From positions 515,153 to 579,152 of the forward strand of contig JBAZMP010000001.1 in assembly GCA_041649715.1 (NCBI GenBank): DNA of 64,000 bases, read 5' to 3'. The DNA is from Patescibacteria group bacterium. GTDB taxonomy: Bacteria > Patescibacteriota > Patescibacteriia > JAXHNJ01. Positions 5,112 through 57,817 of the stretch are shown here, piece after piece; the stretch's first letter is position 1; each line of letters opens with the position of its first letter. The position numbers were made by a program, and so were the translations under genes. The notes below the pieces were generated by a model that ran no database searches, had not been told where the DNA came from, and saw only the letters and a list, made by a program, of their open reading frames with translations.

Positions 5112-5179
5112 GCTAGACCTCCTTGTTACGCGTTTTCTTAAACTCCTAACAAAGAACGGGATTACTTAGTGTTTAAGAT

Positions 5180-31470: not shown

Positions 31471-31473
31471 AAG

Positions 31474-32700: not shown

Positions 32701-32701
32701 A

Positions 32702-33619
32702 TTATTTTAGCAAATCCTGATAATGACTTTTAACCAAAAGTCTTATGCCACTTGGTTTTATTAAGCCAAATTCCGTGATAAAAGCGGTAATAAACTTGGC
32801 CGGAATATAATCAAAAGCATAGTTTTCCAGTTTTAGACCCCTTGGGGCTTCCGGCCAAATTTCCCGGCTGCTTCTTTTTTCCAAAGGAATACGAATATTA
32901 ACCCGGCTTTTAGGATCTATTTTTAACAGACTGGTCGCCACGTAAACCGGTATCCTTGATTCCCAGGCCGCGAGCGCCAAACCGAAACTGCCGATCTTAT
33001 TCACGGCCCAGCCGTTCAGACCCACCGCATCGGCTCCGATAATCAATTTATTGATCTTGATGTCATCGCCGGAATGATCGCTTATCAAAAAAGCAGCGGC
33101 GGAATCACATACCTGCGACACTTTTATATGATTTTTGATCAAATTTTTTGCGGTTATTCTACCTTGAAAAAGCGGCCGCGTCTCCGAATTATAAACGTGA
33201 AAATTTTTCCCGTCTTTTCTGGCTTTAACCAATATTTTTTCCACCAGCGAAGAATGGCAATGCGTGAAGATATTTTCCCGGCTTTTTATCAATAAAGACC
33301 CCCTTTTTACGATTTTGGCCTCAATTTCTTCATAAGCCTTTATTAGGCGTTCAACCTCGTTGGTTACACTTTTTCGGTCCAGTGATTTTTTTACCCCTAA
33401 CCTTTTTTCTATTATGCCAAACAGGTTAATGACCAGGGGTTCAGTCGGCCTTCGGCATAAAATGCCATTTTTAAAAAGTTTGATCGATTTGATCGTTTCC
33501 GCCGCCCGTTTTTTAAACGGCATTCCTTTTAATGTCAAAAGAGAGGTTAGAGCGATTTGGCTTGCCCCTTGGATTTTTATTTTTTTTAATTCCCTTAATG
33601 TTCTTTTCCACGTTACCAT
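32702..33619 (-). CDS. Ribose-1,5-bisphosphate isomerase (eIF-2B alpha/beta/delta family)
   Basis: e2b2-fold motifs; 1-nt gap to the RuBisCO gene. Confidence 0.7.
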   Translation of the reverse strand: MVTWKRTLRELKKIKIQGASQIALTSLLTLKGMPFKKRAAETIKSIKLFKNGILCRRPTEPLVINLFGIIEKRLGVKKSLDRKSVTNEVERLIKAYEEIEAKIVKRGSLLIKSRENIFTHCHSSLVEKILVKARKDGKNFHVYNSETRPLFQGRITAKNLIKNHIKVSQVCDSAAAFLISDHSGDDIKINKLIIGADAVGLNGWAVNKIGSFGLALAAWESRIPVYVATSLLKIDPKSRVNIRIPLEKRSSREIWPEAPRGLKLENYAFDYIPAKFITAFITEFGLIKPSGIRLLVKSHYQDLLK

Positions 33620-44968: not shown

Positions 44969-46600
44969 TTACTGCTCATGTCCGTTTTCCTCGTTATTTT
45001 CGATCTCTTTTTTCTTCTTGAACAGCCACTGGCGCAAGATGGAAATCTCGTCAAAATGAAAGATAAAAGCGATCGCCAGATAAACCAAGACGCCGACCGC
45101 TCCGGCAACCACGCCTTCCAGCAGAACGCCGACAAAAGTCTGCATATTAAGGCCTAAAACCAGGAATCTCTTGACCAGCCAGATGACGCCGCCCATAAAA
45201 AAAGAGGCTAATAAAATCCTGACCGTCGAATTGATGATTTTTTTGTCATCCAGATCGCCGAATCGGCGGCGCAATACCAAGATAAGAAGCGCCATATTAA
45301 CCAGATTGGAAATAGAAAATGAAAGAGCCAAGCCCAAAATTCCCATATAGCGGCTCAGAATGACAGAACCCAATATATTTATCAGGAGCGAGACAACGCT
45401 TATCTTTACCGGCGTTTTCGTATCCTGGTGGGCGTAAAATGACCGCGCCAGCATCGGAATAAGACTTTGGGCGAAAAGAGAAAGAGAAAAATAACCCAAG
45501 GCTTGAGCGGTCAAATATGTATCCTGCCAGTCAAAAGCGCCGGCCCCCAAGATTACCCGGACGATCTGCGCCCTCAGCAAGATAAACAACACCGAAGCGG
45601 GAATGATTAAGAACAAGACCCGGCGCAGGGTGACAGAAAACTGGACAACAAATTTATCCGTTTCGCGGGCGGCAAAAGCCTCGCTCATCAGGGGAAAAGC
45701 AGCGATGGCCAGGGAAACACCGATAACATTGATCGGGAAACTCTGCAGATTATTCGCCAGGTTAAATACGGCGAGCGAACCGGCCGCTAAAAAAGAAGCG
45801 ATGACCGTGATCACGAGCTGATTTATCTGCCCCACGGCCAGTCCAAAAGTTCGGGGTAAAATCAGGCGGAACATTTTTCTGACGCCGGGATGTTTAAAGT
45901 CAAAAAGCCATTGGTAACGGAAACCGGTTTTCAAAACCGAAGGCACTTGAATGGCTAAATGCAAAAAAGCGCCGACCACAACGCCCCAGGCTAAACCCTC
46001 CACGCCCCACCATTTATAAAAAAGGAGAATTCCGAAAATAATGCCGATGTTGTACATCACCGGCGCGAAGGCAAAGGCCAGAAACTTGCGGAATGAATTC
46101 AGGATACTGCCGAAAATATTGGAGATTCCAAAAATAAAAATGGAAGCCAACATGATCCGCGTCAGATCCACGGTCATGGCCTGTTTGACCGGGGAAAATC
46201 CCGGAGTGATAAGACGCGTAATGGGTGTGGCAAAAATAAAAAAGAACAAACCCAAAACAAGCAATATCAGGCAAATAATGTTTAGAACGGAATTGGCGAT
46301 CCGCCAAGCTTCTTTAGTGCTAAAATTTGCCTCTTTATCCTTTTGCCAGTATTCCAAAAAAACCGGGATAAAAGCGGCCGAAAGTGCCCCTAATACCAAA
46401 ACGTTGAAGATCAAATCCGGCAGGCGGAAAGCCGCGTAATAACTGTCCAAAATGTCCCCCGCCCCAAAGGTAGAGGCGAACAAACGGTCACGTAACAATC
46501 CCAAGAGCCGGGATACAATCGAAGCGAAAGCGATGATAATCGCGCCGCCGGCCACCGTCGTTTGTAATTTATGCCAAATTCTCCTTAACATAATAGCCAA
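44969..46600 (-). CDS. murJ: Lipid II flippase MurJ (MviN)
   Basis: 14 TM, MviN/MOP family profile. Confidence 0.85.
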   Translation of the reverse strand: MAIMLRRIWHKLQTTVAGGAIIIAFASIVSRLLGLLRDRLFASTFGAGDILDSYYAAFRLPDLIFNVLVLGALSAAFIPVFLEYWQKDKEANFSTKEAWRIANSVLNIICLILLVLGLFFFIFATPITRLITPGFSPVKQAMTVDLTRIMLASIFIFGISNIFGSILNSFRKFLAFAFAPVMYNIGIIFGILLFYKWWGVEGLAWGVVVGAFLHLAIQVPSVLKTGFRYQWLFDFKHPGVRKMFRLILPRTFGLAVGQINQLVITVIASFLAAGSLAVFNLANNLQSFPINVIGVSLAIAAFPLMSEAFAARETDKFVVQFSVTLRRVLFLIIPASVLFILLRAQIVRVILGAGAFDWQDTYLTAQALGYFSLSLFAQSLIPMLARSFYAHQDTKTPVKISVVSLLINILGSVILSRYMGILGLALSFSISNLVNMALLILVLRRRFGDLDDKKIINSTVRILLASFFMGGVIWLVKRFLVLGLNMQTFVGVLLEGVVAGAVGVLVYLAIAFIFHFDEISILRQWLFKKKKEIENNEENGHEQ

Positions 46601-47030
46601 ATTTTAGCAGAATTTTGGCTTTTTGACAACTTGCCGTCTTTTTCAAAAATCAGTTTAGGTGGCTTAAAAGAACCATTTTTATGTAAAAACCAATAACCAA
46701 GAAACAAGAGAAAACAATGTCAATATTCAATATTCAATTTTCAAACTGTTAAGCGGCAAAAAGCGTTTGGTTATTGAGATTTGAAATTTAAATATTATTT
46801 GGAATACTTGTATCTTGTCTCTTGTTTCTTAACCAAAAAGCTGCCTATAAGCTTTGTCAATTTGAGAATGACTGTTCAGTAGCTTTGCTCCAGAAACTTT
46901 TGGTCCCTGAAACAAGAGGAGAGAGATTTGCTATTGCCACAGAAATTCTTGATTTTAGGCTTATAGACAGCTTTCTGTCTTCAATATAGAACACTATTGA
47001 AGAATTTGTCAAGAAGGTTTTTTAAAAGAA

Positions 47031-47101
47031 CCTCGTCTTAAGCTTACTAATTAGATAAATAAGCTTGAGAAGAGGGGGAAGACGCAACAAGGGTCTTCCC
47101 C
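47031..47101. repeat. Array element copy (terminal, degenerate): hp1-like ctcgtcttaagctta...taagcttgagaagag plus GC hairpin ggggaagacgcaacaagggtcttcccc
   Basis: Matches the element consensus and lies after the last array gene. Confidence 0.5.
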
Positions 47102-47112
47102 GCGAACAAGAA

Positions 47113-47553
47113 CTATTCATTGGCCGCTTTCAAAAATTCAGCGGCTTTCTGGACCGCACCCAGGGTCACGGTTTCCCACACTTCAACGCCCTTGAAACCG
47201 AGGCGAACCACTTGATAACCAGTTACTTCGCCCGCGTTGATAATCGGAACGTACCCGATCTCACCGCAGAGCTTCACGCGGCCGAGTCGTATTGCTTCCC
47301 GCCAGGGGAAGAATCGATTCTTTGTCCGACCGAGATATCTGTCTAGGATGATGCCGAGGCTGCGACCGCCCCTGTCTTGCAAACTAATCATAAACAAACT
47401 GTACGGCAGACGACCGTTTTCCCGAAAAAAATCCAGCACCGCCAACGAGAGGACGGCTTTATAATTCTGCAGCTCGCCATTGCTGTAGGAATAGACAAGC
47501 AGCACAAGAACGCAGATCACGGCGAGAATAGCGACGACCATCAAAGCGATCAT
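47113..47553 (-). CDS. Array gene: N-terminally TM-anchored hypothetical protein (146 aa)
   Basis: ORF with RBS. Confidence 0.5.
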   Translation of the reverse strand: MIALMVVAILAVICVLVLLVYSYSNGELQNYKAVLSLAVLDFFRENGRLPYSLFMISLQDRGGRSLGIILDRYLGRTKNRFFPWREAIRLGRVKLCGEIGYVPIINAGEVTGYQVVRLGFKGVEVWETVTLGAVQKAAEFLKAANE

Positions 47554-47596
47554 GACATATTACCTCCGAATCAAGTTGTAACGACATAAAGCAGTA

Positions 47597-47785
47597 TTAG
47601 TCGCGAGGCTTCCACTCCCGGTAAAACACGCTGAAGACAATATATGTCAAAAAGCCGGCATAAAAACACAGGATGGCCGCCCAAAGATTGAATCCCTTAA
47701 GCGCCATAAAGGTCTTAACCGCAGAAATTAGGAACAGAAGCAATACCGCAATCGAGAAATACTTTTTACCTGACATTTCAACCAT
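47597..47785 (-). CDS. Array gene: 62-aa two-TM peptide. No element separates it from the next gene, so the two share one cassette.
   Basis: Hydrophobic profile; 44-nt gap to the next gene with a GGAGG RBS. Confidence 0.45.
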   Translation of the reverse strand: MVEMSGKKYFSIAVLLLFLISAVKTFMALKGFNLWAAILCFYAGFLTYIVFSVFYREWKPRD

Positions 47786-47817
47786 CCCCTTTTGATGATG
47801 TTTCTATGTTTTAAAAG

Positions 47818-47897
47818 ATCCGTCTTAAGCCACAAGATTTTCTTATGACTTAGGAGGGACGGGCGCAGAGCAAGAATAAAAACTTGTCCGCGCCCGG
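47818..47897. repeat. Array element copy (degenerate, variant-2 type)
   Basis: tcttaagccacaag...cttatgacttaggag followed by the hairpin gggcgcagagcaag...cttgtccgcgccc. Confidence 0.45.
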
Positions 47898-47913
47898 GAA
47901 AAAAGGGAATGAA

Positions 47914-48333
47914 CTACTCGTTTTCCCAGGGGTGATAGCAGTAGGCAACCACATAGTCACGCAGATGCCAATCGATGTAGACATCATAGCCGTCAAGCCC
48001 CAGGGCGGAAACGTCGGCCAGGCCGATCTCGCTGCCGTGAAAGGTAATCTTGCGATTGCCCTCGGACAGCACCAGGCTGTTTCGCAAATCTTTTTGGTCA
48101 AAACTATCTAGGACCGTTTCGAAAATCGTCCGGCCATCAGACAGTTTCGCCAGCAAATTTGCCGGCAAAATACTGTTGGTCAGACGGTATTCCTCGCAAG
48201 AGGAAAAGACTTGCTCGGCAATCAGCCGACACTCGTCTGCCTCTTTACTGAGGTTCATATTCGCCGCAAGCATGTACGCCAGGCTTAACACGACGATAAT
48301 GATCACGGTAAGAAGGAAAGTCCGGTAAGACAT
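47914..48333 (-). CDS. Array gene: TM-anchored hypothetical protein (139 aa)
   Basis: GGAGG RBS. Confidence 0.5.
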   Translation of the reverse strand: MSYRTFLLTVIIIVVLSLAYMLAANMNLSKEADECRLIAEQVFSSCEEYRLTNSILPANLLAKLSDGRTIFETVLDSFDQKDLRNSLVLSEGNRKITFHGSEIGLADVSALGLDGYDVYIDWHLRDYVVAYCYHPWENE

Positions 48334-48377
48334 TACTAACCTCCGTTCGCTAAGAATGAATGGTTACTTTCAATGAA

Positions 48378-48447
48378 CTCTCTTGAGCCTGCCAATATTA
48401 ATTGCCAGACTCGAGAGAGCGGGCCAAGACTTGAAGTGCCTGGCCCG
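48378..48447. repeat. Array element, variant 1: CTCTCTTGAGCCTGCCAA-tattaa-TTGCCAGACTCGAGAGAG plus hairpin cgggccaagacttgaagtgcctggcccg
   Basis: Imperfect palindrome plus adjacent GC hairpin. Confidence 0.7.
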
Positions 48448-48482
48448 AAGAACAAATCGCGAATACCGAAACATGACATGTC

Positions 48483-48917
48483 TCAGAACTGTTTGGATGA
48501 TTTAGCAACACATTCAACACCGAACATAATCAGCAGACAGACGGGACCAAAGAATAAGAGAGCGGGGGCTGGCGGATATTGACGTGCGATGAGAATAAGA
48601 ACGCCGGCGACGATGATCAGGAATAAGCCGAAGTAGAACCAGTGCCTGCGATGTCTAAGCGGCCGGTACTTACGCACTGCCGCAACGAGTCCCTCAAGCA
48701 ATTTATTGAAGGCTCCGGCCGCGACGAAGATCAGAAAAAACAGCGCCAAAGCGATCATTTCCCGCTCAATAATGAGAAGAAAAACCCCGCCGGCGAAACA
48801 GAGAAAAACAACGACGCACAGAACCCAGGAAAACGGCATGGCCATCACATAATGCATGGCTATCATCGCCATTACCGTGGCAAACAGACCCAGACACAGC
48901 AGAGCAAAGTGTCTCAT
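48483..48917 (-). CDS. Array gene: four-TM membrane protein (144 aa)
   Basis: Hydrophobic profile. Confidence 0.5.
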   Translation of the reverse strand: MRHFALLCLGLFATVMAMIAMHYVMAMPFSWVLCVVVFLCFAGGVFLLIIEREMIALALFFLIFVAAGAFNKLLEGLVAAVRKYRPLRHRRHWFYFGLFLIIVAGVLILIARQYPPAPALLFFGPVCLLIMFGVECVAKSSKQF

Positions 48918-48968
48918 TTTGCTACCTCCGCAAAGTTAGGGGCGACTTTTTATTGACTACTCAATGTA

Positions 48969-49049
48969 CTCTCTTGAGTCTGCCAAACTAGTGTTTGCCA
49001 AACTCGAGAGAATGGAGGAGAAAAAGAGGAAGACCTCTCCTTCTCCTCC
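48969..49049. repeat. Array element, variant 1, plus hairpin ggaggagaaaaagaggaagacctctccttctcctcc
   Basis: CTCTCTTGAGTCTGCCAA-actagtgt-TTGCCAAACTCGAGAGA. Confidence 0.7.
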
Positions 49050-49068
49050 GTATTTACAGAACGACTTC

Positions 49069-49494
49069 TCAGGGAACGGGCGGCGTGCGATCGATCAGCT
49101 GATCGACGTTTCCGTCACCCCCCAAGACGTAAAGAACATAGCCCGAGGCATGGTTCGGATTTTCCGAAGCCGGCTGATACTTCAGGGCGCCGGGCTGGAA
49201 AATCGAAGTACGGTTGTCCCAGTCGCGCGGCTCGCTGTGACGCAGCGTGTAGGGATTAACCAGCTTCTCGCCCTTGGGCAAGAACTGGACCATCTCCCCT
49301 GCGGTCATGGGATACGTGCTGTGCAAACGGTAATAGGCCGAGAGGGCCTTTTCCGTCTGATCGCAGTTCTGCTTGACGACCTTGTCCACGGCCTGGTCGT
49401 AGTGGTTGAGGGCCGGCGGAAGAACGCCGAAGAAAAGAATGACAACGACAGCGATTGCCGCGACGACGATAGTCGACCTCTGAATTCTGGTCAT
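49069..49494 (-). CDS. Array gene: pilin-fold-like protein (GspG/pseudopilin-like C-terminus) with a plain N-terminal anchor lacking a prepilin cleavage motif
   Basis: NPYTL...YVLYVLGGDGNVD resembles the T2SS-G C-terminal region; no G/F-xxxE motif. Confidence 0.4.
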   Translation of the reverse strand: MTRIQRSTIVVAAIAVVVILFFGVLPPALNHYDQAVDKVVKQNCDQTEKALSAYYRLHSTYPMTAGEMVQFLPKGEKLVNPYTLRHSEPRDWDNRTSIFQPGALKYQPASENPNHASGYVLYVLGGDGNVDQLIDRTPPVP

Positions 49495-49544
49495 CTGGAC
49501 CTCCTCTAACCAGGTTAAGTGAAACTTCGTAACACTCTGCCTTA

Positions 49545-49670
49545 TTTAGCAATTGGCAGCGGCATGATTATTAGCATATGACATATGGCTTATAGCTTAG
49601 AGATAAATTGCTTATCGCAAACCATAAGCCATAAGCTATGTGCCAACTAACAACCAACCCGCTGCCAACC
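49545..49670. mobile_element. Small IR-bounded insert (MITE-like, about 125 bp)
   Basis: Terminal IR aattggcagcggc / gccgctgccaacc; internal IR catatggcttatagc / ataagccataagctatg. Confidence 0.35.
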
Positions 49671-49684
49671 TTTTTGTAATGTGC

Positions 49685-49750
49685 TCTCTTGAGCCTGCCA
49701 ATTTTACTTGCCAGACTCAAGGGAAGGAGAGAAGCGGCTTGCCTCTCTCC
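49685..49750. repeat. Array element, variant 1, plus hairpin ggagagaagcggcttgcctctctcc
   Basis: CTCTCTTGAGCCTGCCAA-ttttac-TTGCCAGACTCAAGGGA. Confidence 0.7.
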
Positions 49751-49762
49751 GATGAATTAGCG

Positions 49763-50110
49763 TTACTTGATAAAGAGCGTGGAAGCTCGTGGCGCGGTCC
49801 GACAACGCATGTAGACGACTTCCGTCACCTTGACTTCCGCTCCATAAAGAATGTTTCGGTACGGGACGACGAACACGGTAAAAAGACAGCGATCACTCCA
49901 TCTCATGACCACGACGACTCCCATATCAAGACCCACCAAGTGTTGTACGTCGCTGAAAGTCGTAAATGAATCATCGGAAGAAAAGTCAGAAACTCTCATA
50001 TGTTTCTGCTCCTGGAGCTGCTTTTGAAGCTCTTCTCCCGTCCGCTGGTGTTTACAACCCGCCGAAAGCGTCAAAACAGCCGCCAGCAGGACAAACAACA
50101 TAGTTCTCAT
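49763..50110 (-). CDS. Array gene: lipoprotein (115 aa)
   Basis: Lipobox LSAGC; GGGAGG RBS. Confidence 0.5.
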   Translation of the reverse strand: MRTMLFVLLAAVLTLSAGCKHQRTGEELQKQLQEQKHMRVSDFSSDDSFTTFSDVQHLVGLDMGVVVVMRWSDRCLFTVFVVPYRNILYGAEVKVTEVVYMRCRTAPRASTLFIK

Positions 50111-50175
50111 CAGGAAACCTCCCTTTCGCTTGAAAGACTTCAAGTATTTACTACTACTCTTAAATTCGCAACGAG

Positions 50176-50245
50176 CTCGCTTGAGCCTGCCAAACTATTA
50201 TTTGTCAGACTCGAGTGAATGGGCCAAACCGAGGAGGTCTGGCCC
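50176..50245. repeat. Array element, variant 1, plus hairpin gggccaaaccgaggaggtctggccc
   Basis: CTCGCTTGAGCCTGCCAA-actattat-TTGTCAGACTCGAGTGA. Confidence 0.7.
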
Positions 50246-50267
50246 AAGGAGCGAAGGTGAAAGAGTC

Positions 50268-50534
50268 TCAGCCTTTAACGGCATGAAACTCTCCCTCATA
50301 TACGAAATAGCGACGAACACACTTCTTGCATTCCAGATAATCAACGGCAACGACTGATTGTGATCCGGTAAATGAATTCTTCATAGCCAGATCACACTTA
50401 GACTCGCGCCAATCCGGACGATGAATACCGGAGCTGGTAATGTGGATCGTGGTCTTGAAAAGGCGTTGCATAATCATCGAAACAACGACCCCCACTATTA
50501 CCAACAAAATAGCAACCAACGCGAACTCTTTCAT
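50268..50534 (-). CDS. Array gene: TM-anchored small protein (about 88 aa)
   Basis: AAGGAGG RBS before MKEFALV. Confidence 0.5.
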   Translation of the reverse strand: MKEFALVAILLVIVGVVVSMIMQRLFKTTIHITSSGIHRPDWRESKCDLAMKNSFTGSQSVVAVDYLECKKCVRRYFVYEGEFHAVKG

Positions 50535-50583
50535 TTCTATCCTCCTTAGAGAGATAAACTCCAGATTTCGATTATTCAATGTG

Positions 50584-50659
50584 CTCTCTTAAATAAACCA
50601 ACAACATTTGATTTACTAAAGAGATGAGGGAACGCACTTCCTATTAAGAAGGGTTCCCT
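50584..50659. repeat. Array element (degenerate hp1) plus hairpin gagggaacgcacttcctattaagaagggttccctc
   Basis: ctctcttaaataaaccaa...ttgatttactaaagagatgag. Confidence 0.5.
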
Positions 50660-50670
50660 CGGTTGTGCGA

Positions 50671-51060
50671 TTATTTCAGGACGATCACGGCCGAGAGGAT
50701 CCATTCCTCGTAGCCTTCGCCTTCCCCAGAACATCTGGTAAAGGCGACGATGGTCCCATTCTTCCCGTTGACCAGGGCGTAGACCACCGGATTATCGAGC
50801 TTCCCGTCATAGAGAAGACCGGCGCTGTCGTAGACTCGGACAGTGGAGCTGTCGTCGATGTACGAAGTTCCGTCGTAGAAAATCTCGATGGTTCTGGATC
50901 GCTCGTAGGCCGGCTTTTCCGACTTCATGGTAATCTCGCCGGTGCCACCCCAGATGTGCTTGTCGACTTTGATGTTGACCGGGGGCCCGGCGAAGCTGTT
51001 GCTGCCCGCGAACGGAAGCATGACCACGAGGATCATGATAACGAGCATGAACTTTTTCAC
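50671..51060 (-). CDS. Array gene: secreted protein; probable GTG start giving MKKFMLVIM
   Basis: Signal peptide; GGAG RBS 7 nt before the GTG. Confidence 0.45.
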   Translation of the reverse strand: MKKFMLVIMILVVMLPFAGSNSFAGPPVNIKVDKHIWGGTGEITMKSEKPAYERSRTIEIFYDGTSYIDDSSTVRVYDSAGLLYDGKLDNPVVYALVNGKNGTIVAFTRCSGEGEGYEEWILSAVIVLK

Positions 51061-51130
51061 GCTTGGCTCCTTTCGGTAAAACTGATCTTCTGCCATCTTA
51101 GGCTGGCAGACGCCCTTACTAGTCAAAGAA

Positions 51131-51199
51131 CTCCCTCTTAAGCCAACCAGAGATGCCTGATTGACTTGAGAGAGAGGGACGTTTTTTAGGAAACGTCCC
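51131..51199. repeat. Array element, variant 2: CTCTTAAGCCAACCA-gagatgcc-TGATTGACTTGAGAG plus hairpin gggacgttttttaggaaacgtccc
   Basis: Lies inside a roughly 105-nt block nearly identical to 52715-52830. Confidence 0.7.
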
Positions 51200-51312
51200 G
51201 CGTATTTCAGTTCACGGCCCGCCAGCCGGTGGTTTTTTAAGGTGGTGTCACATCTCCACCGGACTAGGCATGACTTATTCCACTCCCCTCTTTTATAAGA
51301 TATCAGCGACGG

Positions 51313-51753
51313 TCAGGCCTGACGCTTAATCCACCAAGCGGACAGGAAGAATACGATCGCAAATAGTCCGGAAATACACGCCAGAAATATGAATGAATAA
51401 CGCTCCCACCGGAATACCGCAATCAAGGAAATCAAACAGATAAACGCTTCGACTATCCCGAAGAGGCACTGCCGTGTCGGCAAATCTTGCTTGGCCTTGC
51501 TGAAAATGCCGGCAATCATCCCAAAGATTCCCAACAAGAAAAAGAGAATCGTCATGATGATGCCCAAGAAGGCAAAAAACAGCCACTCGAGAATGTCGCG
51601 CTCGACGTAGACGATCACGACACCTCCTCCGACGATTAGAACTCCAATCGTCAGAAGCCAGGGATCGAACCCAGGCATGTAGTGCAGGACCACGACGCCG
51701 CACGTGATCGCCACAATCCCGAGAACAAAGATAATGATGCTTTTCATCACCAA
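51313..51753 (-). CDS. Array gene: four-TM membrane protein, paralog A
   Basis: Shares VVVLxxMxGFDPWLLxIGVL with 52873..53328. Confidence 0.55.
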   Translation of the reverse strand: MVMKSIIIFVLGIVAITCGVVVLHYMPGFDPWLLTIGVLIVGGGVVIVYVERDILEWLFFAFLGIIMTILFFLLGIFGMIAGIFSKAKQDLPTRQCLFGIVEAFICLISLIAVFRWERYSFIFLACISGLFAIVFFLSAWWIKRQA

Positions 51754-51790
51754 CCTCCAGGTTTATAGCCTTTTTGATTCAAAGATCTAA

Positions 51791-51857
51791 CTCTCTTAAG
51801 CCAACCAATGTTTGATTGACTTGAGAGAATGGAGGGACCCACGGGGTGGATCCCTCC
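51791..51857. repeat. Array element, variant 2, plus hairpin ggagggacccacggggtggatccctcc
   Basis: CTCTCTTAAGCCAACCAA-tgtt-TGATTGACTTGAGAGA. Confidence 0.7.
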
Positions 51858-51873
51858 GGAACGAACGTAGTGG

Positions 51874-52443
51874 CTAGGCCGCTGCCCCCACCTTCTGGCG
51901 CGCCTCCTGCGGATAGTAGACGCGCAGGTCCCGGCTGCCGATGTTGGCGAGATTCGCGATGTCAGCGCAGTGGTAAAAGCCCACAGCCCTGGCCGCAGTC
52001 CGGGAGAGAATGACGATCCGACCATCGGTCAGAGCGGCATCCATGAAGGCGGCACCGGCGGTCTTGAGCACGCAGCAGGTAAGCTCCTTGTCGCGGAGCT
52101 CGAGAACGCTGCCCGTGTGGACACCTTCGCCGTCGATCCAGCACACTTGCCCTTTGGGAAGCGGCGGGAACGGCACGGCGAGGAGCGCCTTCACCCTCGC
52201 GACGATCTGTTCGTCGGAAAGCCAGCCTTCCGGCTTAGGCGGCAACGTTCTGACGTTGCGGGCCTGCGGTTTCCCATCGAGGGCGTTGATCGGTTCGAAG
52301 ACGACCTCCTCCCCGATCTTCCAGTACTGCCGGCAGCTCGACGCGATGGCCCAGTTGGGCACATAGCGGTCGACGCCATTTTCGTCGGTGATGAAGGAAT
52401 ACACGGCGCCGATTGACTTGACCTTACCATTCATCTGAGACAT
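51874..52443 (-). CDS. Array gene: protein with N-terminal cold-shock-domain-like segment plus about 130-aa extension
   Basis: MSQMNGKVKSIGAVYSFITDENGVDRYV compared with the CspA pattern GxVKWFNxxKGFGFITxxxGxDVFV; AAGGAGG RBS. Confidence 0.45.
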   Translation of the reverse strand: MSQMNGKVKSIGAVYSFITDENGVDRYVPNWAIASSCRQYWKIGEEVVFEPINALDGKPQARNVRTLPPKPEGWLSDEQIVARVKALLAVPFPPLPKGQVCWIDGEGVHTGSVLELRDKELTCCVLKTAGAAFMDAALTDGRIVILSRTAARAVGFYHCADIANLANIGSRDLRVYYPQEARQKVGAAA

Positions 52444-52495
52444 GAGAGACCTCCTTTTCCGAAGCACCTTGGAACACTGTGACTTCTTTCTTGAG

Positions 52496-52660
52496 CCACC
52501 TCACTGGAGGTGAGGCTAAATTGGGAGCTTTCATTAGAAAATGAAAGGCCTGAAAGGATAATCGAGTGAATGACTTAGTAGACCAAGCCAGACGCTTAAA
52601 TTATCCTCAATCGATTGTCCCCGTTAGAAATTTATTTCTAATGGGATGTCTCACCCTCCA
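52496..52660. mobile_element. MITE copy A (about 165 bp), hairpin-ended, with a 28-bp palindromic internal insert
   Basis: Ends gccacctcactggaggtgagg / tcaccctccatggaggtggc; the internal about 75 nt is identical to copy B. Confidence 0.6.
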
Positions 52661-52693
52661 TGGAGGTGGCTAAGAAAAATTTTAGTCAAAGAA

Positions 52694-52761
52694 CTCTCTC
52701 TTAAGCCAACCAATTTACTTGATTGACTTGAGAGAGAGGGACGTTTTTTAGGAAACGTCCC
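52694..52761. repeat. Array element, variant 2, plus hairpin gggacgttttttaggaaacgtccc
   Basis: CTCTCTCTTAAGCCAACCAA-tttact-TGATTGACTTGAGAGAGAG. Confidence 0.7.
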
Positions 52762-52872
52762 GCGTATTTCAGTTCACGGCCCGCCGGCCGGTGGTTTTTT
52801 AAGGTGGTGTCACATCTCCACCGAACTAGTCTTAGTCATTAACACCCCTCTTTTGCAGATTTTGGCGCCGGA

Positions 52873-53328
52873 TTATACCCGTGACATCCGGCGGTTGTTC
52901 CTCCTGCCGATGGTCAGGCAATACAGAGCGACCAGGGCGAAGGGCACTCCAAGGATGAAAATGATGGTATAGAGCGGGTGCCCCCAGTACAGAAGGCCGA
53001 CTGTGATGTCGTATAGGCCGATCAGACCATATGTCCAACTGAAGATTCGCCAATTGCTGTCCAGGAAGCGTCTGACTGGCCGCGACCAGGCGACCATTTT
53101 CTCCATGCCTTTCAAGAGGACATAGAGGATCGCGAAGATGATGCCGAGAAAGATAAAGAAATCCTCCTCAAGAACATCGCTCACAGCGTAAGTCAGGCTG
53201 ACACCACCGGCGATGCAGAGGACTCCGATCACCAGAAGCCAGGGATCGAACCCCGACATATGGCGCAGGACGACGACGCCGACCACGATCGCGATCATAC
53301 CCATAACGAACAGCATGTTGTTCCGCAT
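52873..53328 (-). CDS. Array gene: four-TM membrane protein, paralog B
   Basis: Paralog of 51313..51753; GGAGG RBS. Confidence 0.55.
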   Translation of the reverse strand: MRNNMLFVMGMIAIVVGVVVLRHMSGFDPWLLVIGVLCIAGGVSLTYAVSDVLEEDFFIFLGIIFAILYVLLKGMEKMVAWSRPVRRFLDSNWRIFSWTYGLIGLYDITVGLLYWGHPLYTIIFILGVPFALVALYCLTIGRRNNRRMSRV

Positions 53329-53631
53329 TACAAACCTCCATTAGAGTTAGATGACTAGTTTCGTTTGAAAAATCAAAGTGCTTTATCATTTTCTGAAAGC
53401 ACTAATCTATTAATGCTTTCGGAAAAGTCAGGGAGGCCGATGAAACGCATTTCATCAAAACCTCCCTGGATAGTTTTACCCATCTCGGGTCACCCCGGAT
53501 GGAACCCAGCCGCCCATTTGTTGGCCGGGGTTGAGGCTAGAGTGTTCGCAGGAGGCGAAGCACCCATAGCCCGTGATGGACCAGGTTTTTCACCTGTCCA
53601 CCTCCTTTCTTTTATGATTTAAAGAGCTTCG

Positions 53632-53781
53632 CTAGCTGATCACGATGCAGCAGGAAATCCCGAGAATCCCCAGCACCGTAGGCACAAAGCCAAGCGCCGG
53701 ATGGCCGGAATGCATAATCGCCTTCCCCGCGATAAAGCATAGCAGGGAAACGACGAGTAACGGGCCAAGGTGCTTTTTCAT
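53632..53781 (-). CDS. Unannotated 49-aa two-TM membrane peptide (MKKHLGPLLVVSLLCFIAGKAIMHSGHPALGFVPTVLGILGISCCIVIS)
   Basis: GGAGGGAAGAA RBS with ideal spacing; below the 60-aa ORF-track cutoff; a more plausible reading than the overlapping 53612..53800 ORF. Confidence 0.5.
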   Translation of the reverse strand: MKKHLGPLLVVSLLCFIAGKAIMHSGHPALGFVPTVLGILGISCCIVIS

Positions 53782-53824
53782 TTCTTCCCTCCGAGTTCAA
53801 GACGTATAACGTATAAAGATCGTT

Positions 53825-53904
53825 CCTCTCTTGAAAGTCCTAAATCTTTAAGGCTTTTAAGAGAGGGCTCGGCAAAGAAGGTAGAACAAGTTGATGACCG
53901 AGCC
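53825..53904. repeat. Array element (divergent) plus hairpin gctcggcaaagaaggtagaacaagttgatgaccgagcc
   Basis: cctctcttgaaagtcc-taaatctttaa-ggcttttaagagagg. Confidence 0.55.
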
Positions 53905-53961
53905 TTTTAACGAGCGGATTTTGAGGTGGGATACCGGTTAGGGTGACCGGTGGCGGGAAAA

Positions 53962-54576
53962 TCAGGCAAAGACCATCATTCTTTGGCGGTATTCTATCCG
54001 AAGCATGAAGGCAACCACCAGAAGAGTCGTAACTGTCGCCCGAGTGGCATAGAGAACGGCTAGACTGTCGCCGTCAATCAGGGCCGGATAGAGGGCGATG
54101 AGCATTGCGATGCCCGTTCCGATCCAGACTGAGAACGGCTCGGTGTTTTTTGGCGACGTCCACAAATGCTGGAGGGTAGCGATGTAACCGATGACCACCA
54201 GCAGCTGAGTGAGAACGTTCGACCAGGAGGCCTGGCGGAACATCATCCAGAATAGGATGATTCCCGCGGCCGCAACAAGCGTGCCTTTCTGAAACCGGCT
54301 GAAAGCCAGCTTCAGTTCTCCGTCACGGTATCTCGTCCAGAGGACGAAGAAACAAATGACAGAGGTATTGAGAACGCCAGTCGCGTTGCCGACGTTGCCG
54401 GTCCAGCTGTGAACCGGCGAACGCATGTAGGTGATAAAACCGAGGATCATCGTCAAGCTGATAATAATCCAGGTCGCCGGCACAGGATGCTTGGCCCGGG
54501 TGTTAATCAGATAGCAGTATCTGATAGTCACACCGAACATGATCAAAGCGACGAGAATAACCGACAGTTCTCTCAT
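53962..54576 (-). CDS. Array gene: multi-TM membrane protein (about 204 aa)
   Basis: GAGGTG RBS before MRELSVIL; 5-6 TM. Confidence 0.5.
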   Translation of the reverse strand: MRELSVILVALIMFGVTIRYCYLINTRAKHPVPATWIIISLTMILGFITYMRSPVHSWTGNVGNATGVLNTSVICFFVLWTRYRDGELKLAFSRFQKGTLVAAAGIILFWMMFRQASWSNVLTQLLVVIGYIATLQHLWTSPKNTEPFSVWIGTGIAMLIALYPALIDGDSLAVLYATRATVTTLLVVAFMLRIEYRQRMMVFA

Positions 54577-54805
54577 TTCACACCTCAACTTTTTTAATTC
54601 AATGTGCATTGAAATTCTGGTGGCGGCGAGGGAGTTTAACCCTACTTTTTCAAGTCCCGATCGCCTTGCTAGGCAGGACTTCTCATCCTCTTTTTGTCGG
54701 GACGCCGCCTTTTTCAAACTAATGAATCTTGATCATAAGCTTGAAAAAGGTGAAGAGTCAGATAGTCCGTACTAACTGACTCTTCGCGCGTAGGAACCCT
54801 TGGCT

Positions 54806-55054
54806 TCAGAGACTCAGTCTCTTTTTGCCCTTGTTGTAGCCGGCGACTTGCTTCATCGCCTTGATTTTCTCCAGGAACGAAAGCCGCGGGTCTTTCGGCA
54901 CCAGATCCGTGTTGCCGAGAACATAGATAACGGCCGAAAGAAAATCCTCCAACGTAATCTCGTAGTCGCCGAGATATACGACCTGAGGACCGAAACCATC
55001 GGTCTTAACCGATAGTCCCTCCGGCTTGCTTCCCTGATTTAGGATCAAACTCAT
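54806..55054 (-). CDS. Array gene: small soluble hypothetical protein (about 83 aa)
   Basis: GGGAGG RBS before MSLILNQG. Confidence 0.45.
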   Translation of the reverse strand: MSLILNQGSKPEGLSVKTDGFGPQVVYLGDYEITLEDFLSAVIYVLGNTDLVPKDPRLSFLEKIKAMKQVAGYNKGKKRLSL

Positions 55055-55100
55055 GATTTTCCTCCCTTCAGCATGTGTTATTCTGTCCGATGTAAGGTGC

Positions 55101-55168
55101 TCGCTTGAGCCAACCAAGGACAAGCTTTGATTGACTTAAGTGAGGGAGGGATCCAGGGGGATCCCTCC
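55101..55168. repeat. Array element, variant 2, plus hairpin gggagggatccagggggatccctcc
   Basis: CTCGCTTGAGCCAACCAA-ggacaagct-TTGATTGACTTAAGTGAG. Confidence 0.7.
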
Positions 55169-55190
55169 GTTGTTTTGGACTTTCGTCCGG

Positions 55191-55772
55191 TTAGAACGAG
55201 CAGATGAGCGCGAACCAGCGTTCATTGGTGTCCCCGAGTTTGAACGCGGCGCACAGTCTGGCCGAGCTGAAGGGCCCGACCTTGCCGAGTTCGACGAATG
55301 GGCCGACCCGCGGGTTCAGAGCCTCATCACCGTTCTTGGTGAGATGGCCGATCAGACCGACGGGGAAAGTTCCGCACGTGATCCATTCCCGAAGCAACAG
55401 GAAATTCGGCGCGCCGTGCTGTCCAAACTGCATCAGATCATAGCTCTGCCAGTGTATCGGACCGAAATCCAGGCCGAAGCTTGCGTCGAAGTTCACGTAC
55501 ATGACGCCGATCTTGTCGCCGCCGATATCGCCGAAGCTCAAGCCAGATCCGAACTGGAACGGACCGATCTTGGGTCCGACCGAGAAAGCGACCTCGGTCC
55601 CCGGCGTCGTCCAGATATTGCATCCGAGACGGGGAATGAAAAGAGAGTCTCTGCCCGCGCAACCGAACAGGTTGCCCGTCGGGTAGAACTCGACCGAGGC
55701 GTAGGAACCGGCCAAGCAGACCGCCGGAACCATGAGGATCAGGATAAGCGTGATGAGCATGAACGACTTCAT
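55191..55772 (-). CDS. Array gene: secreted Gly-rich protein (about 193 aa)
   Basis: Signal peptide MKSFMLITLILILMVPAVCLA; AGGAGG RBS. Confidence 0.5.
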   Translation of the reverse strand: MKSFMLITLILILMVPAVCLAGSYASVEFYPTGNLFGCAGRDSLFIPRLGCNIWTTPGTEVAFSVGPKIGPFQFGSGLSFGDIGGDKIGVMYVNFDASFGLDFGPIHWQSYDLMQFGQHGAPNFLLLREWITCGTFPVGLIGHLTKNGDEALNPRVGPFVELGKVGPFSSARLCAAFKLGDTNERWFALICSF

Positions 55773-55819
55773 CGCGAACCTCCTTAAGGCTACAGAGTTT
55801 GGGAACACCCTTCTTCTTC

Positions 55820-55964
55820 GCCACCTCACTGGAGGTGAGGCTAATATGGCAACTTCCACTAGAAAGTGAAAGGCCTGAAAGGATAATCGAGTGAATGACT
55901 TAGTAGACCAAGCCAGACGCTTAAATTATCCTCAATCGATTGTCTCACCCTCCATGGAGGTGGC
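55820..55964. mobile_element. MITE copy B (about 145 bp)
   Basis: Same hairpin ends and internal sequence as copy A. Confidence 0.6.
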
Positions 55965-55995
55965 GAAAAAATGTATAAATGTAAAGGACTTTTTT

Positions 55996-56063
55996 CTCGC
56001 TTGAGCCTGTCAATCTTTTGTTGGCAGACTCGAGTGAGGGGCCAAGACTTAGGAAGCTTGGCC
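55996..56063. repeat. Array element, variant 1, plus hairpin ggggccaagacttaggaagcttggccc
   Basis: CTCGCTTGAGCCTGTCAA-tcttttg-TTGGCAGACTCGAGTGAG. Confidence 0.7.
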
Positions 56064-56085
56064 CAGAAATCTTCTGGAACGAACG

Positions 56086-56430
56086 CTAGCCTCTAAACAC
56101 GTGGAAGTAAGCTTGGTTCACATCAGGAAGAAGCGCTCTGAACACGACTTCATCGTGACGGATGATCTGAATCGCCACAATGGAACAATTATCGATGTTC
56201 AGTATCACCTCTTCGCCTACGTCGACCCTTGGCAGACCGTCAGCCGGAATCACATATCCCTTGCCGTTAACCTTTAGGCTAAGGACGCTATGGAAGCCAG
56301 ACGAAGGCTCGTGCAAGTCCAAGCTTGCTTCTTCTACGACACCGCGTATGACCGTTTCTGTGACAGGTTCACGCTCTTCATACCCAATCTCGCCCATTCT
56401 GTAAACTCTAGTTACTTCCGATATCTTCAT
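56086..56430 (-). CDS. Array gene: small soluble hypothetical protein (about 114 aa)
   Basis: AAGGAG RBS before MKISEVT. Confidence 0.45.
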   Translation of the reverse strand: MKISEVTRVYRMGEIGYEEREPVTETVIRGVVEEASLDLHEPSSGFHSVLSLKVNGKGYVIPADGLPRVDVGEEVILNIDNCSIVAIQIIRHDEVVFRALLPDVNQAYFHVFRG

Positions 56431-56464
56431 CGCCTGCTCCTTTATATAAAGATCTCCTTCCAAA

Positions 56465-56523
56465 GCACTAGTACTTTACTAATGCCTTCGAGAGAGAGGG
56501 CCAAGCCACGAAGGCTTGACCCG
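56465..56523. repeat. Array element (left arm degenerate) plus hairpin gggccaagccacgaaggcttgaccc
   Basis: ...CCTTCGAGAGAGA plus a GC hairpin. Confidence 0.45.
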
Positions 56524-56553
56524 TATGTACGAACGGCGGAAACGCCGGTGTCG

Positions 56554-56781
56554 CTAGATATGCCTGGTAACAAAACGACCCACCAGAGCGATGACGAACC
56601 AGATCGCGAGACAGAAAACGACGTAACCGATCAAGGCGATCGCGATGGCCCCGTAAAAGGCCGGGATCACGATGAGCAAGCGCAGAATGTCGTTTCCGTT
56701 CACGAACTGGATCTTGAGGATCTGGGGGCCGAGAAGAGCGAATAGAATACAGATAATGGTAATCACGATAAACCACTTCAT
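56554..56781 (-). CDS. Array gene: 75-aa two-TM peptide (first gene of the array)
   Basis: GGAGG RBS; hydrophobic profile. Confidence 0.5.
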   Translation of the reverse strand: MKWFIVITIICILFALLGPQILKIQFVNGNDILRLLIVIPAFYGAIAIALIGYVVFCLAIWFVIALVGRFVTRHI

Positions 56782-56814
56782 TTCTGACCTCCGTTTTTTA
56801 TGACCTTCTCAAAG

Positions 56815-56891
56815 ATCTCCTTCTAAGACACTAACCATTGGCTAATGTCCTTGAGAGAGAGGGCAACCATCCGACAGAGTCGTGGTTGCCC
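56815..56891. repeat. Array element (degenerate, upstream of the first gene) plus hairpin gggcaaccatccgacagagtcgtggttgccc
   Basis: ...TCCTTGAGAGAGAG plus a GC hairpin. Confidence 0.45.
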
Positions 56892-57817
56892 AGGCTATCA
56901 CTCATCATTCGCTATGCGATAACTTGATATGATAGAAGGAACGATATGAAAGAGCGAAATTATCGCCAGGTGAATATTTTCATTCATGAATCCACGGGGG
57001 ATTCAATATGAAGACGCTTGCTATTGTCAGGACAATCAAGCGGAGGTGAGATTAAAAGTGGTATCTTCTCAAGCTTTCGCAAAGAGAAGGCCTAAAGGCG
57101 AAGCGCTTGGAGAGGTCGAGTGAAACCCAACCTCGCAAGCCTCTACGCCCAAATAATATCTTTCTCACCCTCCCCTTGACTGTTCTGAAATATTTTTATT
57201 TTGTCGAAGGACTGATGCGGGAGAAGAGGAGGCACTAAGGCCTCCTCCCCTACCGTCTGCTCTGTAAGATCTTACAGAGGAAGTTGGAAGCTAAATTTTC
57301 ATTACCGACCAACTTCCTCTTTACGATCCTTACGAAAAAAGACCCTTCCACATTTGAGAGAGTCTATTCAATCGATTTATAAACAAAACATATGTCTATA
57401 AATCACCGATTCAAAAAATCGGTACTCTCTCCTCATATTAAGTTGTCAAAGTCTCCTCTCCTTTAAGACCTTGTTCTCTCTCCTATTTCTAGCTTGACAC
57501 CTCACTATATAGGGGGGTGGTTTTCTTGTCAAGGGGGGTTATCCCCACCTCTGGCAATTTTGACCTAATCTTAGGTAAAATTAATTCTAAAAAATATCCT
57601 TAAATATTAATTTTTGACGGTTTTTGACCTATTTTTTGCCGCAAAAAAAACAGCCATTTTTAGCCTTTTGTGGATAACTGGCAAAACTCAAACAAACGGG
57701 AGTTTTGCCACCCTGAGCGAAGTCTCGCTAAGCGGGACAAGCGAAGGGTCTTACATTAAAATATATTGCCCCGTGTTTGCGAATGGATCCCGAATAAGAC
57801 AGAGAGTCTAGTCGATT

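Follow-up and report, generated by a model that had tools for sequence, protein, structure and literature searches.

Why is the non-coding sequence behind two paralogous genes better conserved than the genes themselves? This question is raised by a 64,000-nucleotide (nt) stretch of an uncultured Patescibacteria group bacterium (GenBank assembly GCA_041649715.1, contig JBAZMP010000001.1, positions 515,153 to 579,152), referred to below as the window, in which two genes for small proteins with four predicted transmembrane segments (4-TM), paralog A and paralog B, are each followed by a near-identical non-coding block. A sequence-only reading of the window had offered two alternatives, either a constrained flank beside fast-evolving coding sequence (CDS), or a recent recombination or gene conversion event with its breakpoint at a hairpin element of the surrounding gene array. 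We find that constraint and recombination both contribute. The block is an extended cassette terminus of ~149 nt, in which two hairpins, P1 and P2, together with conserved linkers stand ahead of two more, H2 and H1, and a tail. A conserved terminus module, kept by constraint, homogenised between its two copies and having a putative RNA role, is the best explanation as a whole, and we give it a probability of roughly 0.68. The features on which the comparison is based are the following (ORF, open reading frame; UTR, untranslated region).

51313 to 51747, minus strand: paralog A, a 4-TM orphan of 144 aa, with its ATG at 51747 and an alternative TTG at 51753
52873 to 53328, minus strand: paralog B, a predicted 4-TM orphan of 151 aa from the ORF list, NCBI locus tag WC528_02925
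51269 to 51312, minus strand: proximal 3' UTR of A, homolog of 52831-52872
52831 to 52872, minus strand: proximal 3' UTR of B, with an old homology to 51269-51312
51120 to 51268, minus strand: module copy A, 149 nt (P1 51241-51260; linker 51232-51240; P2 51215-51228; linker 51200-51214; H2 51176-51199; H1 51132-51175; tail 51120-51131)
52683 to 52830, minus strand: module copy B, 148 nt (P1 52803-52822; A-rich linker 52794-52802; P2 52777-52790; linker TGAACTGAAATACGC 52762-52776; H2 52738-52761; H1 52695-52737; tail GTTCTTTGACTA 52683-52694)

The repeated module

The near-identical block is present in two copies. A repeat finder recovered it in two parts, 51158-51267 against 52720-52829 (110 nt, 98% identical, family D4, in agreement with pairwise alignment and a sliding plot) and 51120-51149 against 52683-52712 (30 nt, 97% identical, family D9). 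It had been described before as ~105 nt long and as containing the right arm of the array element; its length is in fact ~149 nt, and it takes in both arms of the array hairpin plus 12 nt beyond. A search for the block elsewhere in the 64-kb window returned the two known sites and no others, a 25-mer taken from it having exactly 2 occurrences with 0 expected by chance. Outside the H1 hairpin loop the two module copies differ at 4 of 141 positions, with 3/93 in P1 through H2, 0/18 in the 5' arm of H1, 1/18 in its 3' arm and 0/12 in the tail. These changes are one A/C, two T/C and one A/G, to which the H1 loop adds differences at 5 of its 8 positions.

When 51080-51800 and 52640-53380 were compared in gene orientation in windows of 30 columns, a clear mosaic of coding and non-coding identity was obtained, and uniform divergence was not seen. 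Identity is ~50% in the 5' UTR and 60-87% over the first ~230 nt of the ORFs, falls to ~30%, which is random, over their remainder, is ~45-57% over the 40 nt past the stop codons and rises to 83-100% over the following ~150 nt, after which the sequences are unrelated. Expressed by segment, A and B are 66% identical in the CDS, 56% in the proximal UTR and 97% in the module. The stretches of 40-44 nt between stop codon and block are homologous (~56-64% identical by alignment, 23/41 in one alignment); their global alignment score of 12 compares with -7.6 +/- 3.8 for shuffled sequences, and 0/2000 shuffles reach the observed value. Past ...CTTTGACTA the flanks of A and B are unrelated (p = 0.24). 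The locus is 100% identical in two more assemblies, an ENA contig of 20.5 kb and a Logan contig of 3.1 kb, and the latter ends inside the repeats, as true repeats would cause. The repeat is therefore real, and an assembly artefact is ruled out by these two further assemblies.

In gene orientation the module consists of P1 (GGTGG-10 nt-CCACC), a linker TTAAAAAAC(CAC), P2 (CGGCY-GGCG-GGCCG), a second linker TGAACTGAAATACGC, H2 (GGGACGTTT-loop-AAACGTCCC), H1 and the tail GTTCTTTGACTA. The spacing from stop codon to H2-H1 element is ~110 nt in the two cassettes that carry the module versus 9-37 nt in the others. Two further features were considered and rejected. RNAalifold suggested that the pre-module AAAGAG could pair with the tail CUUU to form a closing stem, which has just 4-5 pairs and is not conserved in the related contig L007 (see below). 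In the same contig a 29-codon ORF lies in the conserved frame of the block; that frame lacks a start codon in the window copies, which are offset from L007 by a 1-nt indel.

Conservation in related genomes

Four module sequences from three genomes were compared, those of the window and of two related metagenomic genomes, L007 and L018. L007 is the contig of a close MurJ relative (MurJ 73% identical) and has a homologous module at 4978-5130, located 3' of an unrelated zinc-ribbon ORF and followed by a structured RNA motif of ~170 nt and then a gene. Window copy B together with its RNA motif aligns contiguously with L007 4978-5310 over 353 nt. The 1455-nt contig of L018 has the order CSD-like gene, element resembling E9 of the window array, ortholog of paralog A, module (909-1053) and RNA motif. 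The occurrence behind different ORFs in relatives identifies the module as an old unit. It is an autonomous conserved unit, present in at least three related genomes, and the earlier description of the block as a mere flank of the two paralogs does not hold, given that it also stands behind the unrelated ORF of L007.

Between the window and L018, P1 through H2 differ at 6-7 of 93 positions (92-94% conserved), the tail at 0 of 12 (100%) and the H1 arms at 9-10 of 36. The P1 and H2 stems are invariant in all four module sequences. By comparison, the proximal 3' UTR is 50-59% identical, paralog A and its ortholog are 80% identical over the N-terminal 225 nt of the gene and 55% over the C-terminal part, and the neighbouring CSD-like gene has a synonymous divergence (dS) of 0.90. 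Since the module, H1 excepted, is conserved well above the adjacent CDS, UTR and synonymous sites, the pattern of substitutions indicates strong purifying selection on it. The constrained flank beside fast-evolving coding sequence that had been proposed is thus recovered across species.

Neither the P1 pattern nor the linker-H2 pattern had a match in scans of viral sequences. A scan of metagenomes with the P1 pattern gave one, at 8601-8629 of L008, an AT-rich contig. This site (GGTGGAG-7 nt-ACCACCTTAAAAAAC) is an exact match to P1 plus linker and lies 50 nt upstream of a gene for a 150-aa membrane protein, with no other part of the module. It was rejected as a module and is probably due to chance, as ~0.5 matches are expected by our own estimate, assuming a collection of ~1 Tb.

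Rapid divergence of the paralogous genes

The ~55% identity estimated earlier by eye for the N-termini of the 4-TM proteins is confirmed by alignment (55% over residues 1-80, E 2e-23). Between the C-terminal halves of A and B no significant similarity was detected (nucleotide score p = 0.076; proportion of synonymous differences, pS, 0.83-0.84), in agreement with the earlier statement that the C-termini are unrelated. Paralog B has no Pfam family above threshold, and a homolog search with it retrieved itself alone among 5.8 billion proteins. A profile of the 4-TM family (full HMMER) found three proteins among 1.84 billion representatives, including P0124 of L018, the ortholog of paralog A. In the window the same profile recovers one more ORF, whose product is 27% identical to the N-terminus of B (E 2e-5).

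48483 to 48917, minus strand: third, distant 4-TM paralog, 144 aa, without the module

For dN/dS, which the sequence-only reading had also raised, the pair A-B yielded dS 0.66, and the non-synonymous divergence (dN) was obtained for A against its L018 ortholog. In the N-terminal half dN is 0.14 and omega 0.21 (dS 0.64); in the C-terminal half dN is 0.68 and omega 0.54. The non-synonymous rate of the C-terminal half is thus ~5x that of the N-terminal half. The ortholog can nevertheless be aligned right through the C-terminus, so the two-TM C-terminal halves of A and B are better read as products of fast divergence than of replacement.

Probable homogenisation of the two module copies

Adjacent segments of the locus give different groupings. 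In the CDS, A is 80% identical to its L018 ortholog versus 66% for A-B and 64% for the third comparison, so that A groups with L018; in the module, A groups with B. The values of dS over 75 codons are 0.66 (A-B), 0.64 (A-L018) and 0.76 (B-L018). The non-loop differences among 141 module positions are 4 (A-B), 17 (A-L018) and 15 (B-L018), with a Poisson P(<=4|15.5) of 6e-4. For the H1 arms alone, A-B shows 1/36 versus 9-10/36 between species (P = 1e-3). The H2 loop is CCTAAAAAA in A and B and CTTTAAAG in both L018 and L007. The H1 arms of A and B are identical to those of E9 and of its L018 ortholog (AGTC...), while the module H1 of L018 and L007 is of the other type (AGCT...). Because neither L018 nor L007 has the derived H2 loop and the derived H1 arms common to A and B, the copies appear to have been homogenised within this genome, and we infer that this occurred by non-reciprocal recombination in this lineage.

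The tract has recognisable ends. On the 5' side it begins at CTAGT, ~70 nt upstream of H2, where identity falls from 98% to ~56-64% and homology persists. On the 3' side it ends at GACTA, 12 nt past H1, where homology stops. The recombination proposed earlier is therefore retained, with breakpoints at CTAGT and GACTA instead of at the element itself. Gene conversion, or replacement of the 3' end of one cassette, would have made the A and B modules alike, and the H1 arms of elements E8, E9 and E10 would have become identical in the same manner. Meanwhile the coding parts, above all the C-terminal two-TM half, would have diverged quickly.

It should be mentioned that the H1 loop does not follow the rest of the block. 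The loop is GGCATCTC in A (51140-51147, element E8) versus AGTAAAT in B (52703-52709, element E10), and the excess of loop differences between A and B over the rest of the block is significant (Fisher p = 4e-8). The loop of B differs from that of L018 at 1/8 positions; that of A is the outlier, 6/8 from L018. The three adjacent elements E8, E9 and E10 likewise have identical H1 arms and different loops, H2s and tails, which suggests that some arm-specific process is acting. Candidates for it are conversion over very short tracts, selection that favours a shared recognition sequence, and recombination at the hairpin.

The cassette array and its hairpin elements

Both paralogs belong to an array of ~10.7 kb between murJ (44969-46591) and a DUF4012 gene (57818-59980). 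The array and the two elements just upstream of the paralogs are as follows.

46830 to 57532, minus strand: whole array, with a promoter and conserved leader, 17 co-oriented orphan ORFs and a conserved tail region before murJ
51790 to 51857, minus strand: element E9 (H2 51831-51857, H1 51790-51830; 62 bits), which closes the previous cassette, upstream of A
53389 to 53468, minus strand: element E11 (H2 53429-53468, H1 53389-53426; 43.5 bits), upstream of B

Most of the 17 small minus-strand ORFs look like membrane or secreted proteins, and none has a Pfam family above threshold; a homolog search with ORF 51874-52443 returned that ORF alone. Sixteen of the ORFs are followed by a typical H2+H1 element (E1-E12 and E14-E17), and E13 is atypical. 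The elements begin 9-37 nt past the stop codons and consist of a GC-rich, cassette-specific H2 (24-40 nt), a gap of 0-2 nt, the family hairpin H1 (38-46 nt) and a tail C[T/A]TT[G/T/A]A. The H1 arms of E9 are identical to those of E8, E10 and the orthologous L018 element. A strong sigma-70-like promoter (TTGACA-17-TATAGT, 57532-57504) is directed into the array; inside the array a promoter scan found no convincing sigma-70-like promoter aimed into a cassette gene.

For the hairpins of the module and of the elements, the folding strand is the mRNA-sense one. Across 24 aligned H1 copies from three genomes there are 17 proposed pairs, with 90% of the cells paired versus 73% in shuffles, and 14 of the 17 pairs show compensatory change; when the partner is slid by one column, pairing drops to 52-54%. 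On the ORF-sense strand the wobble cells of H1 are G.T in 53 cases versus A.C in 16 (p = 9e-6), the inner stem contributing 43 versus 4, and one pair is U.G in 15 of the 24 copies. The same bias is found in H2 (27 versus 7), and in 13 of 17 elements the more stable fold is that of the sense strand. The H1 loop varies from 3 to 10 nt across copies, which is incompatible with the fixed spacer of a double-stranded recombinase core; a Xer/dif-like core was rejected for this reason.

Within the 64 kb, matches to the H1 covariance model R1 are confined to 47018-56863, and the model also matches arrays adjoining murJ in seven relatives (L005, L007, L009, L010, L011, L013 and L017). The nearest named MurJ relatives are Kerfeldbacteria-like, with 56-60% identity. 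The content of the DUF4012-murJ interval varies, from almost no ORFs in L014 and 3 in L009 to ~10 in L011 and L017. L005, the closest relative available (MurJ 88%), lacks window 47014-47819, which corresponds to two cassettes (ORFs 47597-47785 and 47113-47553). The L005 junction (608-616) lies just past H1 of one element and ~19 nt past H1 of the next (E2, E1). Homologous recombination between H1 repeats would give the same pattern of cassette gain and loss. Hairpin-pattern scans returned two chance matches for subtype-2 in genome contigs, both inside Clostridia nfo genes, and no match for subtype-1 in metagenome contigs.

Several other observations concern the ends and the content of the array. 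Its G+C content is 0.47-0.54 over 47000-57000 versus ~0.38-0.48 in most of the flanking genome. The array head (56804-57532, minus strand) comprises the promoter, an untranslated leader of ~650 nt with several hairpins and the RNA motif, and then the fixed element E17; it is 72% identical to L007 2283-2679 over 402 nt. At the other end, 46830-47013 (minus strand) is a conserved non-coding region between the last cassette and murJ, with a strong promoter of its own (TTGACA-18-TATATT, 47012-46983) and, at its end, a long stem that leads into a T run, and without a match in Rfam. It is 90% identical to L005 616-794 and 68-72% to L007 6203-6415 and L009 6508-6706, and it is possibly an unannotated small RNA gene. 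No tRNA or tmRNA was found in the array. A tRNA-like sequence with a 7-bp acceptor-like stem, a GGGTTCGAnTCC T-arm and a CCA-like end occurs in the array leader of L009 (4120-4205) and L011 (1990-2075); ARAGORN does not call it in L009, and none was seen in the window leader. In relatives (L005 980-1438; L010 480-935) a 23S_rRNA_IVP (four-helix-bundle) gene lies between array tail and murJ and a prepilin peptidase (Peptidase_A24) among pilin-like cassettes. L009 and L010 contain weak pilin-like homologs of window ORF 49069-49494.

A possible role in the transcript

The folding of H1, H2 and P2 on the sense strand, their position just behind stop codons, and the fact that neither a convincing internal promoter nor an adjacent recombinase was found together favour an intercistronic RNA role for the H2-H1 elements and the module. 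As intercistronic structures in a long polycistronic RNA, the hairpins would serve to terminate each cistron's 3' end, to process it or to protect it. The geometry of H1, predicted to form 6+11 pairs around a C.A / U-A position, would be compatible with an RNase III-type intercistronic signal. The extended module would be a specialised terminus, usually preceding a structured leader RNA motif. A search of 46000-58000 against Rfam (cmscan, E <= 1) gave only two spurious microRNA matches, at 49578-49639 and 57255-57340, outside the module. The copy of the RNA motif associated with module B is given below.

52478 to 52680, minus strand: structured RNA motif that follows module B directly and precedes ORF 51874-52443 on its 5' side

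Other copies of the motif are found in the window at 55805-55972 and 57050-57195 (minus strand) and, in relatives, at L007 2290-2440 and 5128-5318, L009 3955-4100 and 4880-5015, and L018 ~1065-1245. It is located at the array head and 5' of some cassette genes. The motif is ~150-190 nt long, and 19 of its 36 predicted pairs show compensatory change among 7 copies. It has a closing stem UGGAGGG...CCUCCA and the invariant segments GGUCUGACU and UUAGGCC. At first sight it resembles a miniature inverted-repeat transposable element (MITE) with 20-nt inverted ends. No match to it was found in Rfam, and we regard it as a candidate for a new cis-regulatory RNA.

Weighing the explanations

A number of points weigh against the combination of constraint, homogenisation and RNA role that we prefer. 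In P1 through H2 alone, 3 differences were observed between A and B versus ~7 expected, which is not significant (P = 0.08); constraint is accordingly the main cause of similarity there, and it is chiefly the H1 arms and the H2 loop that speak for homogenisation. The shared change in the H2 loop could be a single mutational event. Synonymous distances from only 75 codons are noisy, so that the order of duplication and speciation is not settled by them. A conversion tract spanning both H1 arms should have carried the loop along, and the loop of B is ancestral-like and that of A is not. Covariation within the module is thin, amounting to one compensatory change in the P2 stem and one U.G/C-G change among four sequences. 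With respect to the RNA role, the GC-rich H2 is followed by H1 and not by a U-tract, and U-rich tails (GUUCUUUG, UCUUUUAA) follow only about half of the H1 hairpins, the others having tails that are not U-rich (ACAUUGAG). Folding on the sense strand would also fit a single-stranded DNA site.

Three other accounts of the block were compared with this reading. Constraint could be the only cause, the modules having remained separate since the gene duplication and owing their near identity to purifying selection, with no recombination. The cross-species conservation of P1 through H2 (92-94%) and of the tail (100%) agrees with this, as do the P value of 0.08 and the fact that 2 of the 3-4 A/B substitutions are structure-neutral exchanges of wobble and Watson-Crick pairs (U.G versus C-G in P2, and in the outer stem of H1). 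We nevertheless consider it rather improbable, in view of the strong contrast between species and paralogs in the H1 arms, the derived H2 loop and arms common to A and B against L018 and L007, and a dS for A-B that is not below that for A-L018. Far less credible is an independent landing of a small MITE-like mobile insertion behind both genes. A sharp 3' boundary, short end repeats (CTAG...CTAG in A, GACTA...GACTA in B) and the presence of the module behind unrelated ORFs could be taken in its favour. However, the module includes the obligatory H2-H1-tail of every cassette at its normal position, the homology of A and B persists at lower identity upstream of the tract, so the site was not empty, and the L018 ortholog of A already carries the module; the terminal repeats are absent in L007, and the module has only two copies in the 64 kb, the viral and metagenome scans adding none. 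Hardly more probable than such an insertion is an antisense small RNA or small peptide encoded on the plus strand, from near H2 to the P2 hairpin plus T6. A terminator scan does flag CCGCCRGCCGGTGG followed by TTTTTT on the plus strand of both copies, and the T6/A6 run is invariant in all four module sequences. Against it, inspection of the window and L007 found no conserved -10/-35 upstream on the plus strand, the conserved hairpin of L007 is separated by 5 nt from the T run, the polymorphic P2 pair is U.G in the sense strand and C.A in the antisense strand, and Rfam has no match. For a peptide, the window copies lack a start codon in the conserved frame, which a 1-nt indel sets apart from that of L007.

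The remaining accounts place the explanation in the movement of cassettes. The H2-H1 elements could be single-stranded DNA recombination sites resembling attC, served by an integrase in trans as in attC-site clusters that have no integron integrase (CALIN), the module then being moved or exchanged as the 3' end of a cassette and not by homologous recombination. This is unlikely, although it is the least unlikely of the alternatives. It is in line with co-oriented, apparently promoterless orphan ORFs and imperfect palindromes downstream of one strong promoter, with an H1 outer stem that is pyrimidine-rich 5' and purine-rich 3', with array size and content that differ among relatives at DUF4012-murJ, with the absence from L005 of exactly two cassettes, the junction lying at element ends, and with a module behind three different ORFs; judged by GC skew, the strand that folds would serve as lagging-strand template. 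However, no integron integrase is present in the 64 kb, which has only a Xer-type enzyme, or beside any related array. The H1 arms have RAG/CTY instead of AAC/GTT and loops of 3-10 nt versus 20-100 nt, they fold on the ORF-sense strand against the bottom-strand rule, and G.T-rich stems are weak as DNA. The identity of A and B also spans both H1 arms and 12 nt beyond, so no crossover at H1 separates the flanks. A somewhat more doubtful idea is that of an undescribed cassette system of the candidate phyla radiation (CPR), a sense-strand hairpin-punctuated array at the fixed DUF4012-murJ locus in which orphan membrane or secreted genes would be exchanged and their termini homogenised independently of integron integrases. 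Exchange and homogenisation could be the work of a recombinase with folded single strands as its substrate, or of a process at the RNA level, and the module and the ~170-nt RNA motif would be control elements.

Comparison with integrons and other known systems

The likeness of the array to integrons and CALIN is considerable. It is a one-way array in which a single promoter precedes small ORFs, mostly orphans and apparently without promoters of their own, with a palindrome per ORF; its sites are more alike within the array than its genes, some cassettes are paralogous and content varies between relatives. Homogeneity of attC sites within an array has been reported for integrons (PMC4889954). 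Six integron/CALIN features were compared; co-oriented, apparently promoterless cassettes with palindromic ends under one promoter were found, and in four of the six the array departed from the known systems. A Pfam scan of window ORFs of at least 150 aa, overlapping alternative frames excluded, found no integron integrase (IntI), an enzyme marked by an extra domain near patch III. The sole tyrosine recombinase in the window, at 5748-6725 (plus strand), is a Xer-type enzyme 40 kb from the array, which scores 203 bits to XerC versus 70 bits to integrase_gron (cutoff 265). No recombinase was found in the DUF4012-murJ intervals of L009 or L014, and no integrase, reverse transcriptase or transposase adjoins any array.

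The sites themselves also differ. The overall length of attC sites is roughly 57-141 nt. Their most conserved parts are the AAC ... GTT triplets in the R and L boxes, and their variable terminal structure measures 20-100 nt (PMC4889954); H1, in contrast, is 38-46 nt long with a loop of 3-10 nt and has RAG...CTY in place of the triplets, with A21 and T49 invariant and G and C at the inner position. The attC site is said to recombine as the bottom strand, complementary to the cassette ORFs, as reportedly described by Bouvier et al. in 2009, whereas H1 folds on the ORF-sense strand. An obligatory second hairpin, H2, outside the palindrome is a further difference. The host is a CPR genome of roughly the 1-Mb class, and in a survey of 2016 very small genomes were without integrons. 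A canonical integron was rejected on the absence of IntI and of the AAC/GTT triplets, the wrong strand and loops that are too short, and an integron/CALIN assignment is not supported. A search of the literature on integrons or cassette arrays in Patescibacteria found nothing relevant and no description of such an array.

With regard to homogenisation, the closest precedent is concerted evolution by gene conversion, as in duplicated tuf genes, rRNA operons and the homogenised VCR/attC repeats. A short tract identical between diverged paralogs, discordant neighbouring segments and derived states shared within the genome were all found here. The present case differs in that the tract is a non-coding structured module and not a gene, that the H1 loop escaped, and that the process also acts on individual hairpin arms of ~18 nt across three neighbouring elements.

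With regard to structure, the elements may be compared with intercistronic RNA hairpins such as the repetitive extragenic palindromic (REP) sequences and bacterial interspersed mosaic elements (BIME) of E. coli operons and the RNase III processing signals of phage T7. Sense stem-loops right after stop codons, a stem of ~20 bp with an internal mismatch, tolerance of G.U and a free loop are common features. Unlike the dispersed REP/BIME, the array elements are confined to one locus, with R1 matches only at 47018-56863 in 64 kb; the window Pfam scans show no Y1_Tnp (the REP-associated transposase, RAYT), and the H1 alignment has no GTAG. The array also differs from both in pairing a conserved family hairpin with a cassette-specific partner hairpin. 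CPR genomes are rich in diversity-generating retroelements (DGRs), and a variable C-terminal coding part followed by conserved non-coding sequence with a hairpin is reminiscent of their targets, where a conserved IMH and hairpin come after the variable C-terminal region. A DGR target was rejected, as the window has no reverse transcriptase and no pair of template and variable repeats (TR/VR), and the differences are not adenine-specific. The C-terminal halves of A and B are unalignable rather than point-mutated, and apart from the module and the RNA motif there are no long repeats.

Significance of the locus

CPR/Patescibacteria genomes are small, host-dependent and rich in orphan surface proteins. 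Elsewhere in the window, a RuBisCO large-subunit homolog (31474-32700) stands in a row with an AMP-phosphorylase-like gene and an IF-2B-family isomerase-like gene (29968-33619 in all, minus strand), a trio that we take to be the nucleoside-salvage RuBisCO pathway typical of CPR genomes.

As an evolutionary pattern, a 3' module subject to purifying selection and gene conversion belongs to a known kind. The interest comes from its context, an integrase-less, hypervariable, hairpin-punctuated array with structured non-coding modules in a CPR lineage. The locus is a fixed chromosomal hotspot whose gene content is different in every relative examined. It is punctuated by a covarying family of sense-strand hairpins and contains a non-coding module better conserved than any neighbouring gene, with what appears to be fine-scale homogenisation of the non-coding parts while the proteins diverge. 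H1, the module and the RNA motif are concrete elements with which to ask whether cassette turnover in CPR bacteria is driven by a recombinase, as in integrons, or is a by-product of repeated RNA elements.

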